Source of the DNA: Psammoneis japonica
Lineage: Eukaryota
Direction of reading: 5' to 3'
Length of the DNA: 64,000 nt
Assembly: GCA_008632985.1 (NCBI GenBank)
Contig: QPGO01000305.1
Coordinates: forward strand, 1 to 64,000
Both the position numbers and the translations under genes were made by a program. Shown here piece after piece: positions 805-46,499 of this stretch. The stretch's first letter is position 1, and each line of letters opens with the position of its first letter. The notes below the pieces were generated by a model. The model worked only from the letters and a program-made list of their open reading frames with translations, did no database searches and had not been told where the DNA came from.

Positions 805-910
805 AGCCCCGACACCAAGGCCAGACACCTGCAGCTTGCGCCCACGTGTTTCGGCCTCCCAAGCCAGCATTGCTGGTGGTCTGAATTTGGGTTTTGTGTT
901 TGCCTCTCTA

Positions 911-1125
911 TGAGAGGATGTTCTGGTTTGACGAATCGGCGTTGCACTTGCCGTTTCGCGGGGACCAAGTAAATCTGGGTGGAGCGGTCAGTCCCTGGTC
1001 CGGGGCTGATGCGCACGATCTGGTGGTTTGTTCTTTCCCACAATCTCACACGATCTAATCGACACAGGGTTCTCTTTGGTTTGTCACTGCTGCTCTTGGG
1101 CTCAAGGTGCTGTCATTGCCCCATG
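911..1125 (+). mobile_element. Polypurine tract plus start of Copia 3' LTR (truncated)
   Basis: TGAGAGGA (911-918) is followed by TG at 919. The same arrangement occurs at 12260-12251 (-). Shared motifs GACGAATCGG, ATCTAATC and CTCAAGGTG with the LTRs of the 12-19 kb element. Right end approximate. Confidence 0.7.
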
Positions 1126-1146
1126 CGGCTGCATCGGCATTCATTC

Positions 1147-1990: not shown

Positions 1991-2119
1991 TGGAGCAAGA
2001 TGAGTCTTTTTAACTCGTTTGCGGGATTGGCCTGCAACACGTGTACGATGGCAATTCAGTTGTTCATTCACACATTCATCCAATGCATTGAAACTGCCTG
2101 CATCGTGTCGGCCCCCTTC

Positions 2120-3989: not shown

Positions 3990-4820
3990 AAATGGCCAAG
4001 GGCACAAAATCAAAAAGGACAAAAAATGTCTGTTGAGGGCGCCAAATCACAAAGGGCACAAACCAGGCAGGGGCACAAAATTGCTGAAGTCACAAAATGA
4101 CTGAGGGCGCAAAATGGCGGCTGAGGGCACAAAGCTGCCAAGGGCAAAAAATCAGAAAGGGTCCAAAATGGCAAAGGGCACAAAACCACAATGGCCAAAA
4201 ATTGCTGAAGGCGCAAAATCATGAGGGGCGCCAAATGCGGCTGAGGGCCCAAAACCAAAAAAGGCACAAAATGGACAAGGGCACACAGCCACAAAGTGCG
4301 CAAAATGGCAAGGGCACAAAACCACAAAAAGCACAAAATGCTCAAGGGCACAAAAAAAGGAAAGGGCGCAAAACAGCCAAGGGCACAAAAAGGTCAAGGG
4401 CACAAAGTCAAGAATTGCGCAACATGGCTGAGGGCCCAAAACCAAAAAAGGCACAAAATGGCCAAGGGCACAAAGTCACAAAGGGTGCAAAATGGCGAGG
4501 GCACAAAACCACAAAAAGCACAAAATGCTCAAGGGCACAAAAAAAGGAAAGGGCACAAAACAGCCGAGGGCACAAAAAGGTCAAGGGCACAAAGTCAAGA
4601 ATTGCGCAACATGGCTGAGGGCCCAAAACCAAAAAAGGCACAAAATGGCCAAGGGCACAAAGTCACAAAGGGCACAAAATGGCCAAGGGCACAAAGCCAC
4701 GAGATGGGGCAAAGTGCTCGAGGGCACAAAAAAAGGAAGGGCTCAAAACAGCCAAGGGCACAAAAAGGTCAAGGGTGCAAAGTCAAGAATTGCGCGACAT
4801 GACTGGGGGCACAAAGCCTC
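3990..4820 (+). repeat. Degenerate AGGGCACAAA(A) minisatellite with ~187-bp higher-order period
   Basis: Dozens of GGGCACAAA/GGGCGCAAA/GGGTGCAAA cores. The block AATTGCGCAACATGGCTGAGGGCCCAAAACC recurs at ~4413 and ~4600. Also present at 25540-26050 and 26665-27510. Confidence 0.9.
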
Positions 4821-4947
4821 AAAGGTGCCCCCAGCGCCAAACACTTGTGCCACAAATCTTGTTTGATCAGTGCCCTGCCAGTGGGCTGTGTCTCTTCAGT
4901 GCCCCCCTGCAACATGTGGCGAGATTGTTCTCGATTTAAAGACCACC

Positions 4948-5026
4948 GAAAATGCGAAAATGCGAAAATGCGAAAATGCGAAAATGCGAAAATGCGAAAA
5001 TGCGAAAATGCGAAAATGTGAAAATG
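4948..5026 (+). repeat. (GAAAATGC)n octamer microsatellite
   Basis: About 10 tandem units. A diverged copy (GAAAATGC/GAAAATGG) lies at 27638-27749. Confidence 0.95.
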
Positions 5027-7729
5027 ATGTGACGCACCAAACTCCATTGAGAGTGTCCAGATTCCGACCTCAGAGACAATCGCATTTTTCCATTTGGCGA
5101 AACGCCATTGTCCGTGCTGTCTTGCGTGTTGCTTTGAGCCACAGAGCCAGAAAACACTCCCAAAAAATTGCCCTGCAGGGCAAACAAAAGAGCGGCGTAG
5201 AAAGAGAAACTGCACGCAAATTGAACGGCTGCAAACATGTGAAGCCTCGGCAAAACACACAGCACAAATGGCAGTGCATGAGGTCGGTTGCGATGCAACA
5301 GAAGCGACATTGTCAATGCGAACCTTCAGCAAGAATTTTTGCCATGATCTGCCCATGCGGGCCTTGACGTTCTTGAGCTTGTCTCGCAGAAGATGATGTG
5401 ACAGCGCCGAGCTCCATTGAGAGCATCCAGGTTCCGACCTCAGAGATGACCGCATTTTTCAGTTTGGCAAAATGCCGTTGTCCGCGCCACTTTGCGCGCC
5501 ACTTTGAGTGGCGAGCCAGAGAACACTCCAAAAAACTGCTCTGCAGGGCAAAGCACACTGAGTCTGCATGGATTTGGGTTGTTCCAGGCCACGTGGAAAG
5601 CCCAGTTTGGTTTCACCGTGCAGCTTCTCAAAGTTCCCCGGCATCACCACCTTTTGCCCTGTTTTTCCGCGGGAAGGGTGAGCTCCCGGGGAGCCGCCAC
5701 GAATTTCCGTTCGTCGCGTGTGTGCTTGACACGCGAACAAAAAACAACACATTGGCAATTCCCCGTGCTTCCCTTCTCGCACATTTCCGCGCATTCAGTG
5801 CACCGGCATGTGCGGAGCCACACACCAGACGCGCAACAATCAACCGTCGACCAACGGCTGCAGCCAAAAATGGGCAACACGCCATGGAGTGTTCGCGTCC
5901 CATCCACGACGGCTCTTGTCAAACAAAAATGACACCAGCCAATCCAGTGAGTGAGATTGCGATCGACAGTGCAAAACAAAAATGAGCAGAAGTGTGGCAG
6001 ATGATGTTGAGCAGAAAACCAGTGCACTGATCGTTGCACTCATTTTTCTTTCCTGCGGTCACAAATGTGAGCCATGCGGCGTTTGTGGCAAAGTTCAAGG
6101 CAAAAGTGGATCGACAGTGCAAAACAAAAATGAGCAGAAGTGTGGCAGATGATGTTGAGCAGAAAACCAGTGCACTGATCGCTGCACTCATTTTTCTTTC
6201 CTGCGGTCACAAATGTGAGCCATGCAGCGTTTGCGGCAAAGTTCAAGGCAAAAGTGGAGCCACACATGGCTGACAAAAATGTGGCGGATTGAGTGGTCAT
6301 GGTTTTTGTTTCAACTGACACATCTCATGTGCAGAATGAAGCGGGTCATTGGGAATCACTCCGTTGTCGTGCAGCCACAAATGCAAACCATGAGGCGTCT
6401 GGAGCGAAGGCTGAGGCAAAAGCAGAGCCTCACAAGGTCAGTGAAAATGTGGCGGATTGATCGACAATGTTCGTTCTTCCCTTTGACCTGTCTCATGCAC
6501 AGAATGCAGTGCATCATTTTTTCCTTCTTGTGTCGTGTGGCCACAAATGCAAACCACAACGGCTCCAGAGCAAAGGCCAAGGCAAAAACAGAGCCACATG
6601 TGAGCAGTGTCAACATGTGTGATTTGATGGTGAAGCTCATTCTTCCCTTGCTCTGCCACAAGGGGGCGCTTTGTGTCGATTTGTCGATGCACCCGTCATG
6701 GTCGTGCATCGTTTTTTCTGTGCGCCGGTCGCCACGAGGATGAAAGCACATCCGCCTGTCCACAATTGCCACACATCACCGCACTCCATTCGTTTTTTGT
6801 TCCCCTCCCCTGAGCCCTTTTGGTTGTTCCTTCCCGCCAAATTGCCCTCATTTCACGGGAATTCCCCAAAAGGGCAAGGCAGCTCCCCCTTGCCTTTGCC
6901 ATTTTGGGGAATCCCCAAAAGGGCAAAACCAAACCAAGGTGGAAAGTGAACGGGCCAAAAACTCCGGCGGACCCACTCAAACACATTCAACAACTGACTG
7001 ACAACAGATCGGTTGGCTGGTTTCCCAAAGCGCCACTTGTGTTGTGCCCTTCCCCAGCTGCTCTCCAGCTGGCGCCGTGGAATGCAGTCGCTCAATTTAG
7101 ATTGTGTCTGCAACGTCATTTGCAACAAATGTGGCTGCCGCTTTTCACACATTGTCCGCCAAACAGGTTTTGGCCCCAGCTCATGTGTCTCAGCGCAACC
7201 CGCCACGTGGCTTTCCTCATCCCCCAACCCGCTGCCCACCTCCTCCACTTTCCTGCCACGCTCTGCCACAATCTTCTTGCAAAAAGCCTCCCTCTTGCGT
7301 TTCCTGGGTGCACTCCCTCCCGCATCTCCATTCTTGGAGTTCCCTGTCGTGAAGTGCTCCAGGCATCTCATGCACTTTCATGCAAACAAGCCACATGTTC
7401 CCAGGTTGCAAGCTGCCCCACAGCCAAAAGAAGCAATCTTTGCCTTTGGAGTCACCATGATGCGCTGGTCTGCCAAATCAAACTCAGCATCGCCGTGGAC
7501 AGTGGGGGAGAAATGTTGTCAAAACTGCGCGATGATGTGTCCGAGCTCTTGAGAGCTCACCCAGCTCAAGACGTCATGGCTCCAAGTCGCCGTGTTTGTC
7601 TTGAACTCTTCCTGATGCTGTGTCTGTGACTTGGCTTCGTCGCTGAATTGCCGTGGCCACCGCACTTTAGAGATGACATTCTAGACAAGAAAAAGTGTCT
7701 CTGGGGTGCCTCATGACAACAGAGACCCC

Positions 7730-8725
7730 ACAGAACAAAAGAACAGCGCAGAAAGAGAAATTGCACGTAAATTGAACAGCTGCAAACACATGAAGCCTCG
7801 ACAAAACACACAGCACGAGGCTGGTTGTGAAGCAACAGAAGCAACATTGTCAATGCGAACCTTCAGCAAGAATTTTCGCCACAATCTGCCCATGTGAGCC
7901 TGGGCGCTCTTGAGCTCATCTTGCACAAGATGGCACAACGAACCGAACTCTGTTGAGAGCATCCAGGTTCCGACCTCAGAGACAATCGCATTTTTCAACT
8001 TGGCAAAACGCCATTGTCCATGCCGTTTTGTGTGCCATTTTGAGCCGCGAGCCAGAGAACACTCCCAAAAACTGTTCTGCAGGGCAAAGCGTGCTGAGCC
8101 CACACAGATTTGGGTTGCACCAGGCCACGTAGAAAGCGAGCGGGCCAAAAACTCCAGCGCGCCCACTCAAACACATTCGACAACTGACTGACAACAGATC
8201 GGTTGTCTGGCTTCCCAAAGCGCCACTTGTGTTGTGCCCTTCCCCGGTTGCTCTCCAGCTGGCACCGTGGAGCGCAGTCGCTCAATTTGGATTGTGCCTG
8301 CAACATCATTTGCAACAAATGTGACTGCCACTTTTCACACATTCTCTGCCAAACAGGTGTTGGCTCCAGCTCATGTGTCTGGGTCCAACCCCCCATGTGG
8401 CATTCCTCATCCCCCAACCCACTGCCCCCCTCCCCCGCTTTCCTGTCACGCTCTGCCACAGTCTTCCTGCAAAAATCCACCCTCTTGCATTTCCTGGGTG
8501 CACTCCCTTCCGCATCTCCATTCTTGGAGTTCCCTGCCATGAAGTGCTTCAGGCATCTCGCGCACTTTCTCTCCTTTGCCCCACGTTCTTCATCGGGCAG
8601 GTTCTTGTTGTTCTGCAGCTCTGTCGTGACCAGCAAAATGGCCAAGGGCACAAAATCAAAAAGGACAAAAAATGTCTGTTGAGGGCGCCAAATCACAAAG
8701 AGCACAAACCAGGCAGGGGCACAAA
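7730..8725 (+). repeat. Rearranged partial re-copy of pieces of the 3.7-7.5 kb unit
   Basis: Segments match ~5180-5600, ~6945-7370 and ~3943-4080. Confidence 0.8.
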
Positions 8726-9159
8726 CAACGCACGTCATCTCTCCTCAATGACCTGTGCTCTCCCTGACAAGAACTTTCTCCCCAAGCATTTGCTTGCCGC
8801 TCGACAGAAAGCAGTGCGGCTCACATTGTCAAATGTGGGTGCAGCTGAAACACAAAACAACTCATCTTGTGTGGCCCACAAGCTCTTGGCAGTGGAGGAT
8901 TTTGACTGCCAGACATCAAACAAGGAGTTGCTCAGTTGCGGGTGCTGTCCAAGCATTCCAGAGGTGTCGCACATCTTCATCTGGGAGAGGATCAACCCAA
9001 CAAATTGCTGCACATTGCAGTCTCATGAATCCAACTGAACTTGGGGACAGGCGTGAGCTTCTTGTGGGATGCAGATGCTGTCCTCCTGCACATGGAATCG
9101 CGTTGGTTTGCTTCCGTCAGTGCATTCTTGCGCAGAATTCAAGGCAAACTCATGTTGTC

Positions 9160-10897
9160 TCAAGAAAAACAAACGTGTCGTTTCAAAAAAAAAGTCACCC
9201 CAAGGAAAACAAACGTGTCATTTCGAGGAAAGCCAACGTGCTGTTTCAAGGAAAACAAACATGTCGTTAAAAAAAAAAAAAACATGTCGTTTCAAAGAAA
9301 AAAACATGTCTTTTCAAGGAAAACAAACATGTCATTTCAAGGAAAACAAACGTGTCTTTTCAAGGAAAACAAACATGTCTTTTCAAGGAAAGCAAACACG
9401 TCGTTTCAAGGAAACAAACATTCCACCTCTTGGAGAGCATCTCGGGTGTGACAGTTGATGCACGACTCAAGGTCGACAGTGCATGCACCCGTCTTCACTC
9501 AGCACAATCCTGGTGGACATCCAGAGTGTGCGCTGTTGGGGTCAAACTTGCAAGGGGTGTCGTGGACAGTCGGCTCACTTGCTCGCAGTTGGTTGGGGCA
9601 CAGCAGGGTGTCAGTCATTGTGTCTCTGAAAAAAAAAGCCTGGTGGACTGGCAGCAGGTGTGGCTGTCCACTGGTTTGATTGACCCACATGGCAGCAGCC
9701 ACGCAAATGGGGACATTCCTCATTGGTGCACACTCTTCAGAGCAAGGATGCACTGCAACAGCGAGGCCAACATCAGAGGACAAAATTGGACCCAGCAGCA
9801 CATGCATCAGTGTGTGAGTCCAAGTCATTGGTTGCCTCACCATGTGGTTGTCCAGCAAATGACAAAGAGACGTGTGTGTTCTTTGGGAGTCACCTGGATG
9901 AATGCACAGTGCCAGCAGGTGCAGCAACAGTCGGCTCCATGTCTTTTCATGGAAAACAAACGTGTCGTTTCAAGGAAAACAAACGTGTCGTTTCAAGGAA
10001 AACAAACATGTGAAACAAACGTGTTGTTTCAAGGAAAACAAACATGTCTTTTCAAGGAAAACAAACATGTTGTTTCAAGGAAAACAAACATGTCTTTTTA
10101 ACACCGCAAAACAAACATGTTGTTTCAACAAAAACAAACATGTTTTTTCAAGAAAAACAAACATGTTTTTTCAAGAAAAACAAACATGTGTTTTTTAAGA
10201 AAAACAAACAAGTTTTTTTAAGAAAAACAAACTTGTCTTTACAAGGAAAACCAACATGTCGTTTCAAGGAAAACAAACGTGTTGTTTCAACAAAAACAAA
10301 CATGTTGTTTCAAGGAAAACAAACATGTCTTTTCAAGGAAAACATGTCATTTCAAGGAAAACCAACATGTTGTTTCAAGGAAAACAAATGTGTTGTTTTA
10401 AGGAAAACAAGCATGTTGTTTCAAAGAAAACAAACTTGTCGTTTCAAGGAAAACAAACACGTCATTTCAAGAAAACAAACATGTCGTTTCAACGAAAACA
10501 AACATGTTTTTTCAAGAAAAACAAACATGTGTTTTTTAAGAAAAACAAACAAGTTTTTTTAAGAAAAACAAACATGTCTTCACAAGGAAAACAAACATGT
10601 CGTTTCAAGGAAAACAAATGTGTTGTTTCAACAAAAACAAACATGTTGTTTCAAGGAAAACAAACATGTCTTTTCAAGGAAAACAAACATGTCCTTTCAA
10701 GGAAAACAAACATGTCGTTTCAAAAAAAAACAAACATGTCTTTTCAAGGAAAACAAACATGTCATTTCAAGGAAAACAAACATGTCGTTTCAACCAAAAC
10801 AAACATGTGAAACAAACATGTGGTTTCAAGGAAAACAAGCATGTCTTTTCAAGGAAAACAAACATGTTGTTTCAAGGAAAACAAACATGTCTTTTTA
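9160..10897 (+). repeat. 23-bp satellite arrays (9160-9420 and 9940-10897) flanking a Copia fragment
   Basis: Tandem TTTCAAGGAAAACAAACATGTCN. Three monomers translate as the 23-aa pseudo-repeat FQGKQTCLFKENKHVFSRKTNMS. Confidence 0.97.
9421..9940 (-). mobile_element. Copia family B fragments (protease region joined to integrase start)
   Basis: Reverse-complement match to ~48425-48835 and ~49245-49350 of the family B element. Confidence 0.85.
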
Positions 10898-11011
10898 ACA
10901 CCGCATCCACCGATTCACCAGGCAAAATTGGCAAAAGTCGGGTGTGGCAAAAAGGGTGCATTTGGTCAAAATTGATCATTGAGTGCAAATGGTGGTGTCT
11001 TTGGGGTCCCT

Positions 11012-11320
11012 TCAGTGAGCCGAACATGCACATTTCTCATTTGACCATCACAGGTCCATCTTGTGGGGGGTGCCAAAACGTCGTGCTTTGACGCGTCTCG
11101 AGGATCAATCGTCACATGATGTCTGCAGTTGTTGAGGTTGTGTGAAATTGAAAATTCACACATTGAAGCACGACATTTTGACACCCCCCACAAGACGGAC
11201 CTGCAGTTGTTGAGGTTGTGTGAAATTGAAAATTCGCACATTGAAGCACGACATTTTGACACCCCCCACAAGATGGACCTGTGATGGTCAAATGAGAAAT
11301 GTGCATGTTCGGCTCACTGA
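11012..11320. mobile_element. ~310-bp fold-back/MITE-like element with ~77-bp inverted termini
   Basis: TCAGTGAGCCGAACATGCACATTTCTCATTTGACCATCACAGGTCCATCTTGTGGGGG.. at 11012 is mirrored and ends at 11320. Internal ~79-bp tandem duplication. No clear TSD. Confidence 0.7.
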
Positions 11321-11655
11321 GCCACGCAAGCATCAGCATTGTGGCTCTTGGCATTCTCCACCAGAATCTTTGCACGCTGCTGGCATGCTTTGAAATCTGC
11401 TGGCTTCGTCAGATTTCCATCCACTGCGCTCTCACCAGTCTCCATCCCAGTGTCGAAAACACCCTTGAGAAAGTCAGAAACCTTCTTGGTCTCAGCCACT
11501 GGCTCGCGGAGCTCAGACAAGTCATTGCAAGCCTTCTGATGGCATTGCGTGCACTGGTCAAAAGCAAAATGACCCCATCTGGTGCACTTTGCGGCGGCAA
11601 TCTGTGCACGGGCACGGTTCTTGTGGGTGGTGGCAGCAGCCGATCCTTCCACCTG
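11321..11655 (-). mobile_element. Copia family B gag fragment
   Basis: FAFDQCTQCHQKACNDLSELREPVAETKKVSDFLKG matches ~47930-48125. Confidence 0.85.
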
Positions 11656-11659
11656 CCCA

Positions 11660-12047
11660 CGTGTCTTTTCAAGGAAAACAAACATGTCTTTTCATGGAAA
11701 ACAAACATGTTTTTTCAAAGAAAACAAACATGTCGAACAAACATCTCATTTTTGAGAAAAACAAACATGTCATTTCAAGAAAAACAGACATGTCTTTTCA
11801 AGGAAAACAAACATGTCATTTCAAAGAAAACAAACATGTCTTTTCAAGGAAAACAAACATGTCTTTTCAAGGAAAACAAACATGTCATTTCAAGGAAAAC
11901 AAACATGTTGTCTTGACAAAAACAAACATGTTGTTTCAAGGAAAGAAAACGTGCAAGTTCTTTCAAGGAAAACAAACATGTCGTTTCAAGGAAAACAAAC
12001 ATGTCTTTTCAAGGAAAACAAACATGTCCTTTCAAGGAAAACAAACC
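11660..12047 (+). repeat. 23-bp satellite array
   Basis: Tandem monomers abutting the truncated 3' LTR. Confidence 0.95.
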
Positions 12048-12252
12048 GAACAAATCTTGATGCAATGAAAGGACAAGCACGACACCTTGAGTCCAAATGG
12101 AAAGTGGCGACACTGTCAATGCGAACCCAAACCTGATTAGATTGTGAGCGTGTCGCTGCAGCACCACTCGATCCATGTGTCTCAACCAACCACCAATTGC
12201 AACATGGCCCTCCATCCAGATTTGCAGCACCGATTCGTCTGAACATGTGACA
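12048..12252 (-). repeat. 3' LTR (truncated)
   Basis: Starts with TG right after the PPT TGAGAGGA and matches 19101-19278. Confidence 0.9.
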
Positions 12253-12367
12253 TCCTCTCACAGAGAGGCAAACCACAAGAACCCAAATTAAACCACCAGA
12301 CACACTGGCTTGGGAGGCGACGATGCATGGGCGCAAGCCACAGGCACCTGGCCTTGGTGTCGGGACA

Positions 12368-14110
12368 TTGCCAAAAAATGCACAAGCAAAGCTTCCATCA
12401 CCGCTCTCCTGCAACCACCTTTGCAAGTGGATCAGCCAAGTTTGTTTCCGTGTCCTCCTTGCCAACACAAACAATTCCCGCTGCGACCGCTTCTCACACA
12501 ACATGGTGGTTGATGGCATTGTGCTTCTTGTGCAAAACCGACTCAGGTGCACTTGCATTCTTTGCAACACCGCGATCATCACAAAAGATGCTTGCTGGTC
12601 CTTCAAGGGGAACCCCAAACATGCGAAGCTTGCAACGCAAGGCAACAATCAATTCCTTGCAAGTCCGCATGCAGCCAATTCACTTCCAAACATTGCTGAT
12701 TCCACCGCATTCTGCTGCTTGCTGAACCACACCACTGGCGCGTCATTGACGAATGTCAGAATCCCGCCATGCGACCTGCGAGTGACAACATTCCCTGCAT
12801 GGTTGGCGTCAACAAATGCACGGATGTTTGCCAGATCACCACGAGGCTTCGGTGCCCGTGGCGGCAGTTCCTCCTCGACATTCCCATAAAACTTGGTCCA
12901 GTCTGCATTCGAATTGAAAACAGATTCATCAATCACTGGTTCCTTTGGATCAAATCCGATGCGTCTGACGTTCTGGTGTTTCTTCACATGCGCAAATGCA
13001 CGGTGCAATGCCTCAAGATGTCCTTTCCTCGGATTGGCTTGACATTGAGGCAGGATTGAAACCTCATGCAAGACATCGATGTGACCCAACTCGATCGCCC
13101 AACGACAAATCCCTGTCAGCTGCAAATGCCTGTCCACCAAGCGGGGCCTAACTCGTCCATCACGTCCAGTTCCGGTTTGCATTTTGGGGGCAGTGGATCC
13201 TTTGCACTGTTCTTCAGAACCTCTCGTTGCCATCTTTATCCAACAGGCCTTCCACAGTCTCAATTGCCAATTTGACACATGACCTCGGTGAACTCGCCCA
13301 GATTGTGCACCCATCCTGAGTCTGAACCTTCTCAACATCAGCTCCAAGACAAACTTCTGGCTCTCCTTCGCTGCCGGGCTTCACGGTGTGGTGTTCACCT
13401 GCTGCAGCAACAATGGACTTCCCTTGATGGGAAATGATTGGCACATCATCGACATGAACCAAAAGCATTTCATGACACTCGTGCCCATCCTCACAAGTCA
13501 CCGCACGCAAGCAGACATCATCTGGGTCCGCTCTCGTTGATTTGAAGCCTGAGTCACGTAAGACCGATGACAGTGCAGACCTCCAAGAGTGTCCCGACCT
13601 CTTCAAGCCACACAATGCCCGAGCAACAACAAGTGCCTTTCCTTCACACTCGCCGCATTCCTTTCCGCCTTCAAACCACATCTTTTCTGTGCACGGTGCA
13701 TTGAGACAAGCATTCTCCAGATCAATTGCCGCAATGTCGACACCATTCAAGGCTGCTGACAAGAATCCAAGTCGCACACTTTCTCTGGAAACCACGCCAG
13801 AGCAAGTGATCGATGCCGGGGCCTCTGTCGTGTGTCCGCCAGCTACAAACCTTGCCTTTCTGGTGAAATCCATTTCAATGTTGAACACCATGTGGCACCT
13901 GATCTCCTGACAACCACGCAAAGTTGTGCTCTTGCCTTCCCGGATGACTTGAGGGGTTTCAGCTTGTGCTCGCGCCATGCCACCTTCACCTTTGCCATCT
14001 CCTCATTGATTGCACGAGCCCAACAATCTGTCCCCGTTTCCTGATCAATCCGCAAAGCATCCTCCGTGGACTTGGGTGATCAGATCCCAAACTTGTGAGT
14101 CGTGCGCCAG
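12368..14110 (-). pseudogene. Copia reverse transcriptase plus RNase H
   Basis: FTRKARFVAGGH, VVSRESVR, DLENACLNAPC, ARALCGLKRSG, LLVHVDD (13445-13456), FVDANHAGNVVTRRSH. Multiple frameshifts. Probable ex-stop CAA at 12368-12370. Confidence 0.95.
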
Positions 14111-16170
14111 TGCTTCTTCTTGACCTTGGATGCAATGCGATTCCGTTTGCGTGGGACATGTGTGGCCCACCAAGCAAAAGCAGGTTCCTCCGTCAACCTG
14201 TTTGCAACAGCATGCTCAGCAACTTCAATGGGGTTAGAGTCCTTTGGATCTTTGAGTTTGACCCAAGATGAGCTGCCATCCTTCCATCCAACCAATGACT
14301 TCCATCCTTTTGTTGTGATCGTCTTCTTCTCCTTCCCGTCAGCGGTTTGTGCGGTGCCATCAGCAATCGACACCGCATCGTCACTCCTCTCGTGGTCCTG
14401 CATCTCGTGCAAGATGGTGCGCTGGTTGCCCTCGCTGTCGACCTGAGCAAACATGTTCTCGGCAATGACATTGGCTGCACGCTCATCTGTGGTTCCGTCG
14501 GCACACTCCACTTCGCATTCGCGAGTGTCAAACAATGGGTTTTGATGCCAAGTCCCAATTGGACGCCCATCCTGTCCTCTTGCACGTTTCGTTACAACAC
14601 CACGTCGCTCGCTGTCGGTTCTGATGTCAAACACAAGTTCCATTCCCAGGTGTTGATCGATTGCCTGCTCGTCATCGTCGTCTGGTGCTCGCCGGGTGAC
14701 AGCATGTTGCCATGTTCCTCATCCTCTGGCGTGATGCCGCCCTCATGTTCCACACCGAGGTTGCCGTCAATTGCAAGATGTCCAACACGAATGCGGGTGC
14801 AGCTTCATCGCCCTTTAAGACAAAGTCAGTGTCGTCCAATCGCTTCTCCAGCTGCTCATTAAAGTTGTCGACCTCAACGCGAACATCCGGTTGCACCACA
14901 TCAGCCTGTGTCACGTGCTTGACCGATGTTTTGGAGACAATCTTCCCACTTTCCGCAATGATCCAACAGCACATGTCCGAGCCAACTTTGTGTGAGACAC
15001 CAAGCCACCGTCCAAGCCTTCGAGGATCGTCAGTTGCACTCAGCTTGTTGGGCCTGTCCCACCACCACACCACATCGTAGAAACCAAAATCCAAATGCTT
15101 GCCTGTCGATGCATTCCAGACGCAGGTGGGAATCCGTGTGACATTGGGCCCGCAGACTTCTGCGTGCGAACTCCGCAGTGAAATTGTGCAGCAATTAAAA
15201 TGTCAATGATCGCCAACAGAAAATGAGGCAATTTTGCGAACGCACAAACTCGCACATGATTGAAGTGCATCATTTTTTACTCAGCCAGTTGCATTCTTCA
15301 GACATTGAAGAATGCAACTGGCACACTGTTGTTTCTGCATGTTTGTTGTACAAAACGTCTGGGGCTTCACAAAACAGCGAGTCTGGACAATGTTTTTTAA
15401 ATGTCACATGTGGAAATCTGCGTGCGAAACATGCAACGGATGACAAAAATCATTGTTGTCACACGTCAGCACTGCGAGCTCCCACCCAGGGCTGGAACGC
15501 GTCTGTCTCTGGTGTCTGCCCAGTGACCTCTTCATGTCCAGTCCTCTTGTCCCTGCCTCTGGCCATGCGCGACACTAATTCCGACTTGCAAACAAGACCA
15601 AAATCCCATGACCGCTTTGGCACCTTCTTCTTCGTCATCCGCAGCCGCCAACGTTTGGCTGAGAAACCAATTTTGCACTCCGCTGCCTGGTTCTGGCTCT
15701 TCCAACCCTGCTCTGATGTTCTCAATTGCACTCTCACACGTCGTGCGTGTCTCACAAATTCGGCGCTCCTTCCAGTGAACTCTCCTGCCCCGCCCGACAT
15801 GGGACATTCTGGTGCACCCACGTCGTCTGTGAATTCAACAAGAGACAAACCTGCCTCCGACCTGGCAGTCATCGGCACAACCTTCACGAATTTGCCCTGA
15901 GCACAGACATTGGCACACGTGTCACTGAGCAAAGACTTCACCTTGGACATCAAAGTGTCCACAAACCATGTTCCTTTCAGACGCTTCCGATGCAAGTCAA
16001 GATGATCCACCCTCACTCTTCGTGACATCGGCTGGGTCGCCGTTCACACGCCATGCTGAGTTGTTGCATTGAGAGCATCTTTTGCCGTTTCTAAACCGAC
16101 ACTCCATTTTCGGGCCAGCTCTTCAGCGTCAACCTTCGAGTGCCGATCCTTGCTGTGTAAATCTTTGACT
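14111..16170 (-). pseudogene. Copia integrase and INT-RT linker, interrupted by a MITE
   Basis: ELARKWSVGLETAK..TTQHGV, WFVDTL, QNQAAE, EEVTGQTPE|LDFGFYDVVWWWD, LGRWLGVSHKVGSDMC, TTKGWK.LVGWKDGSSSW. Confidence 0.9.
15108..15503. mobile_element. ~396-bp TIR MITE inserted in Copia integrase
   Basis: Termini GATGCATTCCAG../..CTGGAACGCGTC. TSD TGTC at 15104-15107 and 15504-15507. Removing it restores the frame TPETGKHLDFGFYD. Confidence 0.9.
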
Positions 16171-16399
16171 GCCCTCTGCCTCTTGTCCACGTCATCGCGA
16201 CATGTGCAAGCCACGTTCACTGACCTGATGAGCCTGTGGCAAAACGATTGAAGTTGATGGATGGGAGACACAGACGACAGTTGCATTTCGACCTCGCCCC
16301 AGCGTGCTGCTTGGGACTTTGCCTTCTCGCTCCTCAATTCCGAGACCTGTTCTTGTCGCATGCCAGAGGTCAATGATCGAATGGCGAGCATCTCCGCCT

Positions 16400-16900
16400 G
16401 CTCTCTAGTGCGCTCTGGCAAGCCCATGTCCATCTGTGCTGGATCCCATGCATCACCTGTCAACAGCATGACCAGCAAGTTCTGTGCTTCCCAATCCGTC
16501 AGAACACGAGACTTGAAAGACACAATTGTCCCCGTGGTGTTGAAAGGGATGAAAGCTTCGTCAGCTTCAGTGCCAAATCCGTTTCGGGTGTCGCAAGGGT
16601 TGTCGTGTGCGGGTGTGTTGTGTGCATGGAGTTGGTTGGGATTCAAAAGTGAGTGTTCCATGTCGGTCCCAAACCAGAGCATTTGATCACCAACCAGCAA
16701 ATGTTCACGAGTCGTTTCCGGATCTGTCCATGCGGTGCAACAATGTGCCACAGGAATCTGTTTGATCGGCTCACAAGAGTCCAGAAATGGATGTACCTCG
16801 CACACTTCATTTGTCATCTCCATGAGCTTCCAGTTCACTTCAGCGCAACAAGTGTCCGCATGAGCATCACATTCATTTCGAGCGACAAACCCAGGCATCG
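16400..16900 (-). pseudogene. Copia aspartic protease region
   Basis: ARNECDAHADTCCAEVNW..LWFG..HSLLNPNQL, the CoDi-type D-x-HADT motif. Confidence 0.85.
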
Positions 16901-17099
16901 TCAAATTTGTCATCTGTGCAGAACTCGTCGATCGGATCACACGTTTTGATGTCACGGCAATGTGCCTCTTTGTTGCCTTTCCTTTGAAACGAGACATTGG
17001 GTGGGGTTCAGTCAACAGCAAGAAGAGTGGCACAAGCAAAAACGACAAGTGTGCCAAATGCGCCAACACTCCAGCAGCTGTTGCCACCCCAAGGAGTCA

Positions 17100-18638
17100 G
17101 GTGGAACCATTGCAGGCTCCCCAACCGAAGGTGCGTCCATTGCATCCACCGCGATCCCGGTCAGCGCCGCGACCACGCCCGCTGCTCCTTTGCTCCTGAT
17201 CCTGTTGTTGGGTTTGGCCTTGGCCATCTTGACAGACTTGGGCTTCAGCCACATGCCTGCCACCCCCATTGCGTCCTTGTCGACCTGCGGGAGACCCACG
17301 GCCACCACCGCGTCCATGACCCATTCGTTCGCAAGCTTGGAACACGCAGCTCATGCCTCCATTGTGCTGTGACTTTTCCCATTCTTGAGCGCTAAAGCTC
17401 CTTGTGGGGTCGGATGCATCGACTCCATTGATCATCGTAGTGTGGTCGCCACCTCTGCCTTCACGGCCACCACCACGTCCGCGTCCACCCCCACGTCCAA
17501 ATCTTCCTCCACGACGCGACCTCGATAAAAACCGCGGCCACCGCCGCCACCACGGCTCATTTCAGAAATCTTGCGCTTCGAGCAATGCCGGGCTTCCAAC
17601 TGAGCACCTGCATGCAAACGAGAGACTTCGGATGAGAAATGAGCACATGCCCCCGCGAAGTCATGAGGGTGCTGACTGCTGATGACAGCCGTTGCTGCAA
17701 TGAGACGAGTGTCATCCGTTCGGATCCCTTTCAGAAGAATGTCAACTTTCTGTCATTCAGATTTGCGGTCATCTGGTGATTTGTTCAAAGCAGTGAAAGC
17801 ACTGGCAAGTTTCTCATTGAACTTTTCGAATGGGAGCGATCCTTCCTTTTTATGAAACAAGGTTTCAACAGTTGCCGCCGCCAGATGGATGCGCTTGCTC
17901 AACTCGCCCTGTCCATTGCAATGGTCAACCCATGCATTGAATGCTCCATGTCCATCTTCTGTCGCGCCAAACGGTTCGATCCATGCCCATCCTGCCATGT
18001 CGACCAAGTGTTCCTTCAACACACGGCAAACGCTGCGGTTGTCCTCGTCACATGCGGCGCCATTCAATGGCATCTGGTGCGTGCGCTGTTGTTGAGCATC
18101 CGTGAATGCAGCCGGAGCTGGCATTGTCCTTACGACATGGCAAAGGGGTTCTTTCAACACGCCAAATTTCTGTGCCAAGAGATTCAGGAAAGCATCTTTG
18201 CACACATCGAAGTCATCGGGCTCAAACTTTACGAGACCGCTTGCCAACACGTCCGAATCCGTGCGCTCCTTTTCAACACGCCTGCCATTCCGGGCCGCAG
18301 CCACAGCTGCCACATTGAAGTCTGCCGCAACCAATGGCTGATTCCATTTGAGCAAATCCTGGCACCACCATGCATCACCTGTGAGTTCTTGATCTGAATG
18401 GTCCCAAGAGCCACACGTCCGTCGGCCACCGTGCGACAAGATGCCCTCTGCGCCATGTCTTCCACATCGTGGTCACTCTCCATCACTGTGATGTTTTCCA
18501 AAGTCGCAACCCTTTGTGGAAGACCAACCTCGCCCTTGCGTTCTGGTCAGCAACACCACAAACTTGCAAAACTGCATCAATGTCAGCTGCCGCGGCCAAC
18601 GCCGCAAGTGCTGCTGCTGGTGCTGCCGCTGCTGCCAT
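17100..18638 (-). pseudogene. Copia gag
   Basis: Start MAAAAAPAAA (ATG at 18638). FLNLLAQKFGVLKEPL, DNRSVCRVLK, HCNGQGELSKR, then an RGG-rich segment. Confidence 0.8.
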
Positions 18639-19100
18639 CCTGCAACAGAGAAAGGGCACAAAGGTCCTGCACCGGGAACATGTGGCTGTGAGTCTGCATG
18701 GTCATGATGGCTGCACTTTCTCTGTGTTGTGATGACAGGGTTCAAAAAGCCACCTGACGTCAGGGTGATCAGTCCTGTGTCGTTCATGTCAACCGACATT
18801 GTTGAGCACATGCTCGGGCATGTCGCCCAATGCCGCAGTCCCTTCACACCCGCTGCGTGTGTGAGGACAGTGACCATCTTTGCGAGCATTGCCGTTGCAA
18901 GCTGTTTTTGTGGACATCACAACAAGCAACACGAGATGCATCATCGTGCGCATCAACCCGAATTCTGACGCATCACGTGCAGTTCAGCGCCGTTTCTGCA
19001 GCTGCACATTCCATGCAAACAACACAACAAACAATCGTCCATGACAAGTTGCACTCGAAACCATTTTGCTCTGTCTTTTTCGTCTTGGCTCTGACAAAGT

Positions 19101-19278
19101 GAACAAATCTCGATGCAATGAAAGGACAAGAACGACACCTTGAGTCCAAATGGAAAGTGGCAACACTGTCAATGCGAGCCCAAACCTGATTAGATTGTGA
19201 GAGTGTTGCTGCAGCACCACTCGATCCATGTGTCTCAACCAATCACCAATTGCAACATGGCCCTCCATCCAGATTTGC
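19101..19278 (-). repeat. 5' LTR segment matching the 3' LTR (probably extends toward ~18900)
   Basis: Direct repeat of 12048-12225. Confidence 0.85.
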
Positions 19279-19282
19279 TCGA

Positions 19283-21035
19283 AGCATGTTGTTTCAAAAA
19301 AAAACAAACATGTCTTTTCAAGGAAAACAAACATGTCGTTTCAAGAAAAACAAACATGTTGTTTCAAGGAAAACAAACATGTCGTTTCAAGGAAAACAAA
19401 CATGTTTTTTCAAGGAAAACAAACACGTCGTTTCAAGAAAAACAAACACATCATTTCAAGGAAAACAAACGTGTTGTTTCCAGGAAAACAAACATGTGTT
19501 TTTAAAGAAAACAAACATGTCTTTTCAAGGAAAACAAAGGTGTCATTTCAAGGAAAACAAACATGTCCTTTTGAGGAAAACAAACAGCGCTCACTCATTT
19601 TGAAGAAAAACAAACATGTTGTTTCCAGGAAAACAAACATGTGTTTTCAAGGAAAACAAACATGTCTTTTCAAGGAAAACAAAGGTGTCTTTTCAAGGAA
19701 AACAAACATGTCCTTTTGAGGAAAACAAACAGCGTTCACTCATTTTGAGGAAAAACAAACATGTCTTTTCAAGAAAAACAAACATGTCTTTTCAAAGAAA
19801 ACAAACATGTCTTTTCAAAGAAAACAAACATGTCTTTTCAAAGAAAACAAACATGTCGTTTCAAGGAAAACAAACATGTCTTTTCATGGAAAACAAATGT
19901 GTCGTTTCAAGGAAAACAAACATGTCTTTTCATGGAAAACAAATGTGTTGTTTCAAGGAAAACAAACATTTCTTTTCAAGGAAAACAAACATGTCTTTTC
20001 AAAGAAAACAAACATGTCTTTTCAAGGAAAACAAAAATGTCTTTTCAAGGAAAACAAACATGTTGTTTCAAGGAAAACAAACATGTCGTTTCAAGGAAAA
20101 CAAACATGTCGTTTCAAGGAAAACAAACATGTCATTTCAAAGAAAACAAACATGTCTTTTCAAGTGAAACAAACGTGTTGTTTCAAAGAAAACAAACATG
20201 TCTTTTCAAGGAAGGAAAACAAACATGTTGTTTCAAGGAAAACAAGTGCGTCTTTTTGACAAAAACAAACATGTCTTTTCAAGAAAAACAAACAACTCGG
20301 AGCACGCCAACAAAGCCTTGATGACAGTTGGCCGTTTTGGCACTCAACTCAGGCAAGCCGTGGAAAAACAAACAGCATTCACTCATTTTGAAGAAAAACA
20401 AACATGTTGTTTCCAGGAAAACAAACATGTCTTTTCAAGGAAAACAAACATGTCTTTTCAAGGAAAACAAAGGTGTCTTTTCAAGGAAAACAAACATGTC
20501 CTTTTGAGGAAAACAAACAGCGTTCACTCATTTTGAAGAAAAACAAACATGTCTTTTCAAGAAAAACAAACATGTCTTTTCAAAGAAAACAAACATGTCT
20601 TTTCAAAGAAAACAAACATGTCATTTCAAGGAAAACAAACATGTCTTTTCATGGAAAACAAATGTGTTGTTTCAAGGAAAACAAACATGTCTTTTCATGG
20701 AAAACAAATGTGTTGTTTCAAGGAAAACAAACATGTCTTTTCAAGGAAAACAAACATGTCTTTTCAAGGAAAACAAACATGTTGTTTCAAGGAAAACAAA
20801 CATGTCGTTTCAAGGAAAACAAACATGTCTTTTCAAGGAAAACAAACATTTCATTTCAAAGAAAACAAACAAGTCTTTTCAAGGAAAACAAACATGTCTT
20901 TTCAAGTGAAACAAACGTGTTGTTTCAAAGAAAACAAACATGTCTTTTCAAGGAAGGAAAACAAACATGTTGTTTCAAGGAAAACAAGTGCGTCTTTTTG
21001 ACAAAAACAAACATGTCTTTTCAAGAAAAACAAAC
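19283..21035 (+). repeat. 23-bp satellite array with internal ~740-bp duplication
   Basis: Tandem monomers. The block ending ..AACTCGGAGCACGCCAACAAAGCC occurs at ~20295 and ~21037. Confidence 0.95.
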
Positions 21036-23110
21036 AACTCGGAGCACGCCAACAAAGCCTTGATGACAGTTGGCCGTTTTGGCACTCAACTCAGGCAAGC
21101 CGTTCAGCTCAGGCCTGTGCCGCGGTCTCAAGGGGGTTGGCGCCTTTGTCGGAAGACGCCTTTCAGCTTTCTTGAGCTCCAGCTCAACATCAGTCAATTC
21201 CCACTTGACAAAAGGTCAGAGGACATGGCCCAGCGTGCCTTGCTTTCCAAGTCAGACAACTGGCACTTTCTGATCTGGGCGCCCAATTGCTCCTCCAGCT
21301 CGCAGACACTTCTGTCCTTGAGCGTGCACCCAGAGCTCATGCAACCCATGATCTTGACGTTGCTGACCCCTGCCTGGGTCGTCACTCGGAGGGTGTTCTT
21401 GGCGGCTGTCAGGCCAATGTCCCACCTCTTGGAGAGCATCTTGGGCGTGACAGTCGATGCACAACTCAAGGTTGACAGTGCATGCACCTGTCTCTGCTCA
21501 GCACAATCCAGGTGGACGCACAGATTGTGCCGGTCATGTGGCCCGTCTCCCCCAATGTGGTTGTGAGAGACACTCACCTGAGCAACCAAGCAGCGGTGCA
21601 GAGAATCGTCATCATTTGCATCCACAATGATGCTCTCATTTTGATGGGACGTCTGACACAAATGAGTTGAAGTGACACACCTGTTCGCACTCATCATTGA
21701 TGCATTCCAGGTCTGGGTGGGACCTTGCACTGCTGAGCTGTGACATTGACAGTTTTTTGAATCACGTCGCATGTCGTGCACACAGATTTCTGTGTGATTT
21801 TGGCGAAATTTTGCATCATTTTATGGCGCAAATGTCAGGCGATCCATTCAGCAACTTTCAATGTTTTTTTCTTCTGCGCCATTCTTGAGTGTCTTAAGAA
21901 TGGCGCAGGGCAGGTGTGTCATCCAAAACTTCGAGTGCGAACAGAGACACATGCACTGCAAACTTGGCCGTTTGTTTTGTGTCGAAGACAAATGTGTCCA
22001 TTGACCAGAGTACGAACTGCAGAGCTCGCACGCAGAATTCCACGGGGCAAATGTCACAAAAAGTCCCACCTGGGGCTGGAACCCGTCCATTGTCAACTGT
22101 CCATCAGACTTTGCTGGTCCTTTGTGCACACTGGCACATGCATGCTCTTCCTCCTTTTGTGCCGCGGCATCAGCAGAAGGTTCCCATCCAAGGGGTGATG
22201 TGAGCTCCAGCCGGGGGAGGTTCTCCAGATGTCCTCCTGAGTTGGCTCATGTGAGTCAAAGACCACAGCAACACCTTGCGCGTGCAAAGGCATCCTGATT
22301 TTCGAGTCAGGGAAAACAACAGAGTGCGCTGTTGGGACGAAACTGGCGAGGGGTGTTGTGGACAGTCAGCTTGCTCGCTCGCAGTTGTTTGGGGCACAGC
22401 AGGGTGTCAGTCATTCTGTCCCTGAAAAACACAGCCTCATGGACTGGCAGCAGGTGTGGCTGTCCATTGGTTGGATCAACCCACATGGCAGCAGCCGCAC
22501 AAATGAGAGCGCTCCTCATTGGCGCACACTCTTGGAGCAAGGATGCACTGCGACAGCGCAGTCAACATCAGAGCACATGACAAATTTGGGCCCAACAGTG
22601 CGCGCATCAGCGTGCGAGTCCAAGCCATTGGTTGCTTCACCATGTGGATGTCCAGCAGATGACAAAGAGACACACGTGTTCTTTAGGAATCACCTGGATA
22701 AATGCACAGTGCCAGCAGGTGCAGCAACAGTTGGCTCCATGCCCTTTGGTGCTGGCACAACTGTTCGTTCCTCCTTCTGAGGTTTCTCGTGGGCGCTGCA
22801 CCCAAACTGCATGCCTGTGTTGGCAGCAGGTGGCTCATCTGACTCTTTGGAGTCCTTTTGTTCATCAGCAGGTTAAGGCTCAGCAACAGCCGCCCTTTTC
22901 ACAGCGTGAGTGTCGGCATTGACCGACTCAGCCTCCAAGGATGCAGCTGCTGCTTTGCATTTTTTCCCAGCTTTCTTGGCCTCATGGAGCTTCTCAATTT
23001 GCTTTTGCTCAGGACCGTCAGGAGCCCTCCACTCTTCAATGGGGCAACGGCATGCCCGGATCCTGGGCTTGTCCTTTTCAGGTTGGTGCTTGCCACCAGA
23101 GTTTCCATGC
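21036..23110 (-). mobile_element. Internally deleted Copia family B copy (gag end, PR, INT start, RT piece)
   Basis: 21360-23040 mirrors ~48135-49410. 21036-21355 encodes RT: LGAQIRKCQL..WAMSSD..ELELKKAERRLPTKAPTPL..RPELNGLPELSAKTANCHQGFVGVLR. Confidence 0.88.
21699..22087. mobile_element. ~389-bp TIR MITE
   Basis: Termini GATGCATTCCAG../..CTGGAACCCGTC. TSD CATT at 21695-21698 and 22088-22091. The empty site is visible near 49070-49080. Confidence 0.9.
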
Positions 23111-23117
23111 CGGTTGT

Positions 23118-24070
23118 TGCAAGGAAAACAAACGTGTCATTTTAAGGAAAACAGACATGTCTTTTCAAGGAAAACAAACGTGTTGTTTCAAGGAAAACAA
23201 ACACGCCGTTTCAAGGAAAACAAACATGTCTTTTCAAGGAAAACAAACACTTCATTTCAAGGAAAACAAACATGTTGTTTCAAGAAAAACAAACGTGTCT
23301 TTTCAAGGAAAACAAACATGTCATTTAAAGGAAAACAAACATGTCGTTTAAAAAAAAAAGTTTGAAAACAAACATGTTGTTTCCAAGAAAACAAACATGT
23401 GTTTTTAAGGAAAAAAACATGTCTTGAAAACAAACATGTCTTTTCAAGGAAAACAAAGGAGTCTTTTCAAGGAAAACAAACATGTCCTTTTGAGGAAAAC
23501 AAACAGCATTCACTCATTTTCAAGAAAAACAAACATGTCTTTTCAAGAAAAACAAACATGTCTTTTCAAGGAAAACAAACATGTCTTTTCAAAGAGAACA
23601 AACATGTTGTTTCAAGGAAAGAAAACATGCAAGTTCTTTCAAGGAAAACAAACATGTCGTTTCAAGGAAAACAAACAAGTGTTTCAACCAAAACAAACAC
23701 GTCGTTTCAAGGAAAGCCAACGCATCATTTCAAGGAAAACAAACATGTTGTTTCAATGAAGACAAACATGTTGTTTCAAGAAAACCAAACATGTTTTTTT
23801 TGAGAAAAACAAACATGTCTTTTCAAGGAAAACAAACATGTCATTTTTCAGAAAACAGACATGTCTTTTCAAGGAAAACAAACATGTCGTTTCAAGGAAA
23901 ACAAACGTGTCTTTTAAGGAAAACAAACACTTCATTTCAACGAAAACAAACACGTTGTTTTGACAAAAACAAGCGCGTTGTTTGACAAAAAAAAAGCGTT
24001 GTTTCAAGGAAAACAAACATGTTCTTTCAAGGAAAACAAGCATGTAAAACAAACATGCAAAAAAGAAAAC
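23118..24070 (+). repeat. 23-bp satellite array
   Basis: Tandem monomers. Confidence 0.95.
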
Positions 24071-24194
24071 AGAGAGCATCTGTTGGCAGCACTGCCAGCG
24101 AACCATGTTGTTCACAAACACACGCCTCTGGCACAAAGAGCACATTTCCACAATGCTGTGTTGCTGAGATTGGTGCCATGTTGTGCTTGCAGCC

Positions 24195-24690
24195 TGATCT
24201 TCCCAACAAATGTGCTGAGGATGGCTTTGCTCTTGGAATTTGGTTGGACAGCCAGTGGCCACAAAACACAAGCTCAGCAAGCTCGACATTGAAAAAGAAG
24301 AAAAACTTGAGGAGGCTGGCGCCAAGTGGCTCTTGTGGGAAAATCAATGGGGCACAATGCCCTCTCTTCTCAAGCAATTCACGAAATGGGATGGGACATT
24401 GCCAACGATGGCCTAATGGTCAGCGACCAACGGAGGGGACTTGAGCTAACAGGAATTGCTGGAGAAGGCCAGAGCCAAGTGGGGCATTCTGGCTGATCAT
24501 TGGGAGACTGTGTTTTCTCTTCTCAAACAGCTTGTGGTGTGCGGGGGGAAGCTGCAAAGTGCCCCATTGTTACGCTGAAAATGGAGAGAGACTTGGACAT
24601 TGGCTGGACACGCAAAAGCAAGCATGGAAGGCTGGAAGACTGAAGAACAGCCATGCAAGCCGGCTGCCAGATCTTGGCATGTTTTCGTCC
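24195..24690 (+). pseudogene. Tandem helicase-associated (HA, PF03457-like) domain gene remnant
   Basis: Across frameshifts: PNKCAEDGFALGIWLDSQ..KLDIEKEEKLEEAGAKW..NQWGTMPSLLKQF..; DHWETVFSLLKQ..GSCKVPHCYAENGERLGHWLDTQKQAWKAGRL..RLPDLG. Fits the W..M..LL.....G.C.VP..Y....LG.W...Q......L.....L..LG pattern. Confidence 0.75.
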
Positions 24691-24920
24691 AACAGCGGTC
24701 TCTGCTGCAAGCTGCAGCGCGCAGAAGCAGAAGAGACAAAGAGAGTGTTCCGAAAGATTGACGCTTTCAAGGAGAAAGCAGACTCAAGCATCAAGACTGT
24801 TCAAGCGCCAGCTGGTCCTCAAGACAATCTGAAGACACTCAGACATTGGATGGCAGCAGATGCTCCAGAGGATGCAGCAGCAGCACTTTGGACACGGAGT
24901 CAAAATCATTTTGGACAGGC

Positions 24921-30061: not shown

Positions 30062-30064
30062 TGC

Positions 30065-46497: not shown

Positions 46498-46499
46498 TG

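Follow-up and report, generated by a model that had tools for sequence, protein, structure and literature searches.

Two arginine codons at former tyrosine sites of a TpA-depleted copia-type retrotransposon from Psammoneis japonica: sequential A-to-G changes as the probable origin

Introduction

How can a tyrosine codon turn into an arginine codon, a change that converts TA into CG, in DNA from which the dinucleotide TpA has almost vanished? We address this question in a stretch of 64,000 nucleotides from Psammoneis japonica (contig QPGO01000305.1 of assembly GCA_008632985.1, positions 1 to 64,000 of the forward strand; hereafter the window), in which a degenerate Ty1/copia-type retrotransposon with long terminal repeats (LTRs) carries two Arg codons where its relatives read Tyr. 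The original prediction for this locus held that such double changes create new CpG sites and that, as no TpA remains after one hit, they require either both strands to be hit together or a secondary activity at CpA. It further proposed that the new CpGs serve as substrate for methylation and decay back to TpG or CpA. Our analysis suggests that both Arg codons probably arose by two sequential A-to-G changes, on opposite strands of one ancestral TpA, the first being fast and taking place at T-A-Y, the second slow and taking place at C-A-Y (Y, pyrimidine; R, purine; N, any base). Coordinates of all features are collected in Table 1.

Ancestral state of the two Arg codons

Both Arg codons lie in an open pol fragment on the minus strand, in the sequences ...TDERAANVIAEN... 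(CGT, here the 14479 site) and ...EGNQRTIL... (CGC, the 14419 site); the reading that spans both is ...TDERAANVIAENMFAQVDSEGNQRTIL.... Residues at the two sites were read from tblastn alignments of 120 database relatives. At the 14479 site these carry Y in 112 cases, F in 3, V in 2, and H, I and L in one each, with no R; at the 14419 site they carry Y in 76, F in 33, H in 5, M in 3, L in 2 and R in 1. Arg in relatives, which would speak for an old Arg codon, is thus absent from the first site and present once at the second. Judged from these alignments, Tyr ancestry appears well supported at 14479 and moderately supported at 14419, and the proposed replacement of Tyr by Arg is confirmed at both codons as far as relatives can indicate it.

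The best relative of the pol fragment is approximately 64% identical. No relative above this identity was found in the protein database in either of the two length classes examined, so there is no family-level ancestor for comparison. Within the 64-kb window no second copy covers the focal codons, and degenerate DNA patterns around the focal motif yielded 0 matches in metagenome contigs and 0 in viral contigs. A shorter pattern led to one metagenome contig that proved unrelated (TA observed/expected ratio, O/E, 0.62; no BLAST match to the window).

Frequency of double changes at Tyr codons

Ancestral residues along the element were derived from 47 full-length relatives of 1250–1500 amino acids, whose alignments, spread over several frames, run from protease to RNase H between approximately positions 17006 and 12371. 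Positions with at least 20 aligned relatives and at least 60% agreement were used, and overlapping-frame duplicates were excluded. Among the 35 conserved Tyr codons, 15 now read TGY, 13 CAY, 4 TAY, 2 CGY and 1 TGG, and hence 30 have become Cys, His or Arg. Both strands are struck about equally (15 TGY vs 13 CAY), and the Cys and His outcomes show no significant same-strand clustering along the element (10 runs vs about 12 expected, hand run test). Under independent hits 7.5 double changes would be expected, and 2 are observed, which is 3.7-fold fewer (one-sided Fisher test, p=1.8e-4). A first hit thus shields the site to a large extent, as for a TpA-specific process, and the view that one hit removes the target is borne out. 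A further Tyr>CGC candidate at 181-183 (+) was dropped, having 15 alignments only and a frame that overlaps a better-supported codon.

The two doubles have to be compared with the rate at which CpG arises where no TpA was present. Codons with an ancestral CA or TG became CG in 1 of 100 cases (His 1/25, Gln 0/22, Cys 0/11, Trp 0/33, Met 0/9), as against 2 of the 30 hit Tyr codons (p=0.13). A>G outside TpA at codon position 2 of Lys, Asn, Asp, Glu, His and Gln codons amounts to 13/274 (p=0.65). The best-matched control for the second step is CAY itself: here 2/15 Tyr-derived codons compare with 1/25 His codons changed from CAY to CGY (p=0.54), and in the duplicated repeat families A and B of the window the same step is seen at 12/147 sites (CAT>CGT 5/75, CAC>CGC 7/72), a frequency indistinguishable from 2/30 (p=1.0). 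The Tyr doubles are therefore no more frequent than local A>G at CAY would lead one to expect, and they give no support to a special double hit. The test of a CG excess at TA-derived sites over matched ancestral CA/TG came out negative, TA>CG being no more frequent than background. With it falls the supposed need for both strands to be hit together, for which none of these comparisons (1/100, 13/274, 12/147) leaves an excess.

Conserved Ile, Val and Leu positions show the same picture, with 22 NCA codons (single T>C in NTA) and no clean NCG; two ACG codons at such positions would need one more change, and Ile has become ATG in 3 codons. Provided that the 2/30 of hit Tyr codons are representative, just a few percent of the lost TAs turned into CpG. 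Creation of CpG from TA is real but minor.

TpA erasure and sequence context of A>G changes

The window contains 160 TA (O/E 0.04), along with 6663 CA (1.55), 5775 TG (1.61) and 2262 CG (0.67), the O/E of AT being 0.68. In all 64 one-kb bins TA O/E is at most 0.20; residual TA is highest in the first 4 kb (0.11-0.20). Owing to the loss of TA, the stop triplets TAA (82) and TAG (43) are nearly gone, with 1234 TGA remaining, and 145 stop-free frames of at least 150 amino acids are found in the 64 kb. Most long stop-free frames are spurious and include satellite-encoded 'proteins' such as ...GKQTCLFKENKHVFSRKTNMSFQ... repeats.

The TAs that survive are not a random sample. By flanking bases, 91 of the 160 are Y-TA-R, 64 mixed and 5 R-TA-Y (p=3e-22), and outside the satellite the respective counts are 57, 63 and 5. 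A pyrimidine precedes each of the four Tyr codons that escaped a hit (4/17 vs 0/19, p=0.04), and the 5' neighbour of both Arg codons is G. The mutator therefore seems to prefer an adenine with a 3' pyrimidine, that is, T-A-Y. Outside the satellite, R-CA-R plus Y-TG-Y, which hits on the favoured strand would leave behind, sum to 2739 and R-TG-R plus Y-CA-Y to 1821, a ratio without unmutated reference, and among CpG flanks R-CG-Y (702) exceeds Y-CG-R (367).

The context of A>G outside TpA was evaluated in families A and B, for columns with at least 5 copies and for changes private to one copy. A>G is no faster after C (CpA 19/325 vs RpA 19/489, p=0.23). It depends on the 3' base, with 30/353 adenines changed before a pyrimidine vs 8/461 before a purine (p=6e-6). 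In RpA alone, a subset immune to mis-polarised CpG decay, the figures are 18/206 and 1/283 (p=1.3e-6), which is an approximately 25-fold difference. The proposed secondary CpA activity survives in part: a slower A>G step that makes CpG from CA exists, but it is governed by the 3' pyrimidine and is not specific for CpA. In family A, outside TpA and CpG, A>G (26/646) exceeds C>T (8/566), an AT>GC bias (p=0.008).

Monomer frequencies of the 23-bp satellite cannot be polarised by themselves, as amplification spreads variants, and three orthologous arrays were used instead. In these, CAT>CGT leads the list of private changes (18/61 sites), with CAA at 1/59 and other non-TpA adenines at 19/441. An apparent CpA excess in the three-copy families C-H (82/884 vs 58/1282) was rejected: it is absent from families with at least 5 copies per column, and in three-copy families fast CpG decay on the inner branch reads backwards as a gain of CG from CA.

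CpG turnover in duplicates and satellite

Among the 62 family A columns that vary within CA, TG, CG and TA, TA occurs in just 2, and in these the products are CA and TG, never CG. The satellite has no TA at the variable dinucleotide in 739 monomers without indels (positions 11-12: CA 570, CG 90, TG 60, TA 0), so that variation among CA, TG and CG with almost no TA is found as had been proposed. At positions 13-14 the satellite reads TG in 665 and CG in 51 monomers; CAA is cold, with 6 and 4 CG among 739.

In the variable family A columns, CG is the most frequent state 28 times, shares first place 9 times, is a minority state 21 times and is missing 4 times, and 20 of the 78 columns that hold CG are invariant, next to 129 invariant CA and 110 invariant TG. 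Private C>T changes in this family affect 20/108 CpG sites vs 8/566 other C (p=3e-11), a difference of approximately 13-fold, as methyl-CpG decay would produce; no transition class is rarer than C>T outside CpG. For the nine columns with three states, the simplest reading is that CG has decayed on both strands. Families A and B together show 19 apparent CpG gains (A>G at CpA) beside 25 losses. CpG thus seems to turn over: new sites arise slowly but at a large number of CAY positions, and the existing ones, which are few, are lost fast. The proposed CpG cycle holds in outline for its two limbs, fast C>T at CpG and gain of CpG, and not for its starting point, as most CA/TG/CG variation among duplicates needs no TA ancestry. 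By analogy with transposons of the diatom Phaeodactylum, the fast loss may reflect methylation.

The element, its LTRs and other copies

The element combines an RVT_2 domain (in the neighbouring fragment 13214-14002; PF07727, E 5e-10), a polyprotein in copia order and flanking LTRs, in agreement with a Ty1/copia assignment. It is flanked by the 23-bp satellite on either side, and its named relatives are from pennate diatoms (Nitzschia inconspicua, Fragilaria crotonensis, Cylindrotheca fusiformis). Approximately 435 bp inside it (15067-15503) are skipped by contigs of other copies and have 50-100 times the depth of the rest of the element in a public sequencing run (110,000 vs about 2,000 summed word depth); a repeat of high copy number has inserted here and interrupts the integrase region.

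The LTRs differ at 9 of 185 nt, 4 of the differences being CG vs TG or CA and the rest other transitions and transversions. All 38 shared CA/TG positions agree (21 CA, 17 TG), and a single TA, in the context T-TA-G, is kept in both. The copy may have arrived already mutated, the LTRs may have been homogenised, or outcomes determined by the flanks may mask independent hits. The last cannot fully explain the LTRs, because two copia copies carry opposite products at shared sites: in a hand comparison of fragment 12-801 with the main element, two of the four shared Tyr sites that were hit in both show this, so a flank rule does not fix the outcome. The pattern suggests that the TA hits predate insertion, or that the LTRs were homogenised. 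Fragment 12-801 has 76% DNA identity to 13173-12223, and 2 of its 6 conserved Tyr codons are intact.

Other copies were sought in one public run, possibly of the source sample, which holds a fraction of 0.45 of the sampled words of the element. Its contigs include 3344 pieces at least 80% alike over the element, of which 498 are at least 99% alike, and they cover all 30 bins of the element; by depth, the run holds about 30 copy-equivalents of the copia family at 80% likeness or more. The pieces differ from the window at 833 places, with 712 transitions (A>G 150, T>C 168, C>T 197, G>A 197) and 121 transversions. Two further runs contributed no pieces. Among the 40 of these 833 places that were listed, none of which falls at 14419-21 or 14479-81, positions 12345-6 read CA in the window and TG in nearly all other contigs, and positions 13387-8 read TG in the window and CA in other contigs. 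Both lie between a 5' purine and a 3' pyrimidine, and at each of them a single TA has given rise to the two opposite products. The run also has a 35-nt stretch of the element both with and without TA, so that less-mutated copies exist. The window itself consists of repeats only; the run has, besides such versions with TA, loose ends rich in TA.

Table 1. Coordinates of the features in the window
Feature	Position	Strand	Remarks
TpA-erased repeat region	1..64000	whole window	dinucleotide counts
Degenerate Ty1/copia-type LTR retrotransposon	12041..19278	-	inserted in 23-bp satellite; frames broken into pieces
LTR, 3' in element orientation	12041..12225	-	185 nt, 95% identical to partner
LTR, 5' in element orientation	19094..19278	-	185-nt direct repeat, 7053 bp from partner
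Open pol fragment, 212 amino acids	14080..14718	-	contains both Arg codons; conserved ...ANVIAENMFAQVD... region of diatom-type copia polyproteins
Arg codon CGT	14481..14479	-	flanks G-CG-T, ancestor G-TA-T; relatives Tyr
Arg codon CGC	14421..14419	-	flanks G-CG-C, ancestor probably G-TA-C; relatives Tyr or Phe
Control event CAT>CGT at conserved His codon	13000..13002	-	sole CA/TG>CG among 100 His/Gln/Cys/Trp/Met codons
Further copia-type fragments, same or other families	12-801 (+), 48526-50021 (+), 9538-9850 (-), 21365-22519 (-), 43708-43923, 59779-59994		
Family A reference copy, 1.4-kb repeat	31857..33258	+	9 full or partial copies, about 93-98% alike; polarises recent mutations
Family A, other copies	34835-36238, 55442-56844, 58169-59492, 51792-53027, 40161-41249, plus fragments		non-coding
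Satellite arrays, examples	9951-10898, 19299-21024, 30350-31856, 38339-39882, 53047-55044, 62165-63613		

Other repeats of the window

Copies of family A and satellite arrays take turns along the region, which thus consists of large blocks that have been duplicated; 3676-7497 and 25225-30063 form another such pair, as do 43175-45925 and 59246-61963. The satellite makes up approximately 18 kb of the window in approximately 25 arrays. Its sole ApT, which lies within CATG, is the hot spot of variation (A>G 157/739, T>C 61/739), and its positions 16-17 are hypervariable, transversions included (CT 220, CG 168, CA 113, TG 81, GG 80). An A-rich minisatellite with a unit like CAAAATGGCCAAGGGCA is present at 3988-4815, 25584-26050 and 26662-27508; it has a strand AT skew of approximately 0.37 and nested periods of 17, 34, 68, 119-120 and 187-204 bp. 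An assembly gap of 362 N lies inside a satellite array (33403-33764), and a single N at 1640.

Proposed mechanism and alternatives

We consider it likely that each Arg codon records two A-to-G changes in succession. The first would be a fast, TpA-directed mutation with a preference for T-A-Y, which would have erased TA throughout the region. Since both strands are hit about equally, its substrate would most likely be double-stranded genomic DNA, and we infer adenine deamination as its chemistry. In the second step, the leftover adenine, now in C-A-Y, would change to G much more slowly, at the rate of a few percent that ancestral CAY sites show elsewhere in the window. As R-TA-Y has both adenines in the favoured context and the focal codons were presumably G-TA-Y, doubles are expected at just such sites. 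The new CpGs would then enter a pool that decays fast by C-to-T, as methylated CpG does.

Several observations weigh against this sequential origin. It rests on just 2 events, and the 7-fold excess of 2/30 over the 1/100 codon control, although non-significant, may hide a modest real one. Both Arg codons are adjacent among the ordered Tyr sites, a placement with a chance of approximately 0.08 (hand calculation) that fits one local event. Tyr ancestry at 14419 appears only moderately supported, with Tyr in 76 relatives, and ancestral states throughout are drawn from relatives that are at most approximately 64% identical. Polarisation by singletons may assign the wrong direction to a change, a serious problem in the three-copy families, which were left out of the context tests. 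The lack of any CA-vs-TG discordance between the LTRs is unexpected if TA hits postdate insertion, and the model alone does not explain it. The choice between His and Cys follows a 5'-neighbour rule as a trend only (9H:7C vs 4H:8C, p=0.28). Finally, the slow A>G step may be unrelated to the mutator, as ordinary A>G mutation in this organism may itself favour A-Y.

This last point leads to the strongest alternative, which concerns the second step alone. If that step were ordinary spontaneous A>G, the Arg codons would be products of neutral decay in a dead element; within the sequential origin we give this version a real but minor share. Its frequency equals that at ancestral CAY sites, the element is old (broken frames, approximately 5% LTR divergence), and in a hand tally approximately 13 of 65 conserved Arg CGN codons have themselves become TGN or CAN. 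In the Bigelowiella natans lines described below, moreover, the preprint places every GC-biased mutation of the hypermutable regions at TpA (bioRxiv 10.64898/2026.01.13.699255). Against it stand the AT>GC bias outside TpA and CpG, which has the direction of the mutator and is opposite to the usual bias as stated in the same preprint, and the 3'-pyrimidine preference, which mirrors the flank bias of the surviving TAs and suggests one enzyme. We tentatively take the slow step for off-target activity of the A>G mutator itself, at about even odds against a spontaneous transition.

The sites might never have been Tyr in this family, with an ancestral His, Arg or Phe and at most one ordinary change. 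At 14419 the residues of some relatives (H 5, R 1, F 33 of 120) would permit this, CAC>CGC being a single step, and the distance to the nearest relative leaves room for it. We regard it as unlikely, as Y prevails at 14479 (with H once and R never), Y or F is the rule at 14419, and 28 other conserved Tyr codons of the element read Cys or His, so that loss of Tyr by TA hits is the norm.

Slightly less probable still is a concerted hit, by which both adenines of R-TA-Y would be deaminated in one encounter and both changes fixed in one lineage, say through repair templated by the edited strand, converting TA directly into CG. It would suit the G-TA-Y context of both Arg codons, in which both strands are favoured, their spacing of 60 bp, and the numerical lead of 2/30 over 1/100. 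The absence of a significant excess over any control, of clean doubles beside the 22 NCA codons and of CG from the two TA-holding family A columns all speak against it, as does the deficit of doubles relative to independence. In addition, one round of two-strand deamination followed by replication would give one TG and one CA daughter and no CG. Sequential change is the better account of the data.

That TA loss and odd codons stem from sequencing or assembly errors, such as mis-called modified bases, is very improbable: although the public run contains only 0.45 of the sampled words, its independently built contigs (maybe from the same sample) cover the whole element, the changes behave as heritable states that are shared or differ among copies, LTRs and satellite monomers, and Tyr>Cys/His is consistent with the frame throughout the 7-kb element.

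Comparison with known systems

In the literature searched we found no report of TpA erasure in diatoms, and a single matching process, described in a 2026 preprint on Bigelowiella natans (Mettrop et al., bioRxiv 10.64898/2026.01.13.699255). According to this preprint, mutation-accumulation lines gained A>G/T>C at TpA only, in two integrated viral regions, with TpG or CpA as products depending on the strand and with long-term depletion of TpA and gain of CpA and TpG. It also describes an enrichment of transposon domains among TpA-poor coding sequences and proposes an ADAT2-like adenine deaminase; its main text does not mention "CpG", "both strands" or "diatom". The window shares with that system the TpA depletion, the TpG and CpA products and the end of target status after one hit. 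It differs in that its element has pennate diatom rather than chlorarachniophyte relatives, in that depletion is deeper (O/E 0.04 over 64 kb vs 0.45 in their nucleocytoplasmic large DNA virus region), and in that satellites and LTR retrotransposons are affected, with a T-A-Y flank preference and a second, slower A>G step at N-A-Y by which CpG arises.

The natural substrate of TadA/ADAT enzymes is tRNA A34, which follows the invariant U33 and in bacteria lies in a U-A-C context. By analogy, this would fit the T-A-Y motif as well as the ADAT2 proposal of the preprint.

Three further systems may be considered. Fungal repeat-induced point mutation (RIP) likewise inactivates repeats by transitions in a dinucleotide context and leaves skewed dinucleotide ratios. 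RIP consists of C>T changes, for the most part at CpA, and increases TpA. The direction is reversed here, with TpA destroyed and CpA and TpG made, so that the signature of RIP is absent. ADAR-type editing, for which U or T is preferred before the edited A (as stated in bioRxiv 10.64898/2026.01.13.699255), resembles the present case in that A>G follows a 5' U/T. RNA editing fixed via retrotransposition would mark one strand of a retroelement, whereas both products are about equal here; satellites of a non-transcribed type and non-coding repeats are TA-free as well. With both strands hit and the satellite equally TA-free, the one-strand signature of such editing is not seen here. As to CpG loss, CG methylation of Phaeodactylum transposons is reported to be maintained by DNMT5a (Hoguin et al. 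2023, PMC9998398), and the approximately 13-fold faster C>T at CpG in the window's duplicates, together with a CG O/E of 0.67, would fit such methylation. Unlike in classic methyl-CpG decay, A>G at CAY seems to replenish the CpG pool of the window.

Implications

Had the double-hit idea been true, an enzyme able to edit the two strands of a palindrome simultaneously would have been implied. The data favour a strict and simple rule, by which a single hit abolishes the site and leftovers change slowly, and a candidate enzyme would need the specificity T-A-Y >> C-A-Y > N-A-R. More tentatively, a repeat-directed DNA adenine mutator of T-A-Y specificity in a diatom-lineage genome might, through weak off-target activity at N-A-Y, write CpGs into silenced repeats, where they would be methylated and decay to TG or CA. 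Such a two-enzyme cycle, which we think rather less likely than not, would set the composition of satellites and transposons and would strip two of the three stop codons from them. For annotators, caution seems warranted, as nearly TGA alone is left as a stop, which gives rise to spurious long frames, and Tyr reads Cys, His or Arg.

The wider setting of TpA erasure matters more than the two codons. The mobile elements of this genome are diatom-like, and its satellites and retrotransposons carry a nearly saturated TpA-directed signature, which suggests that the process is older, or more widespread, among the algae of the stramenopile, alveolate and rhizarian (SAR) group.

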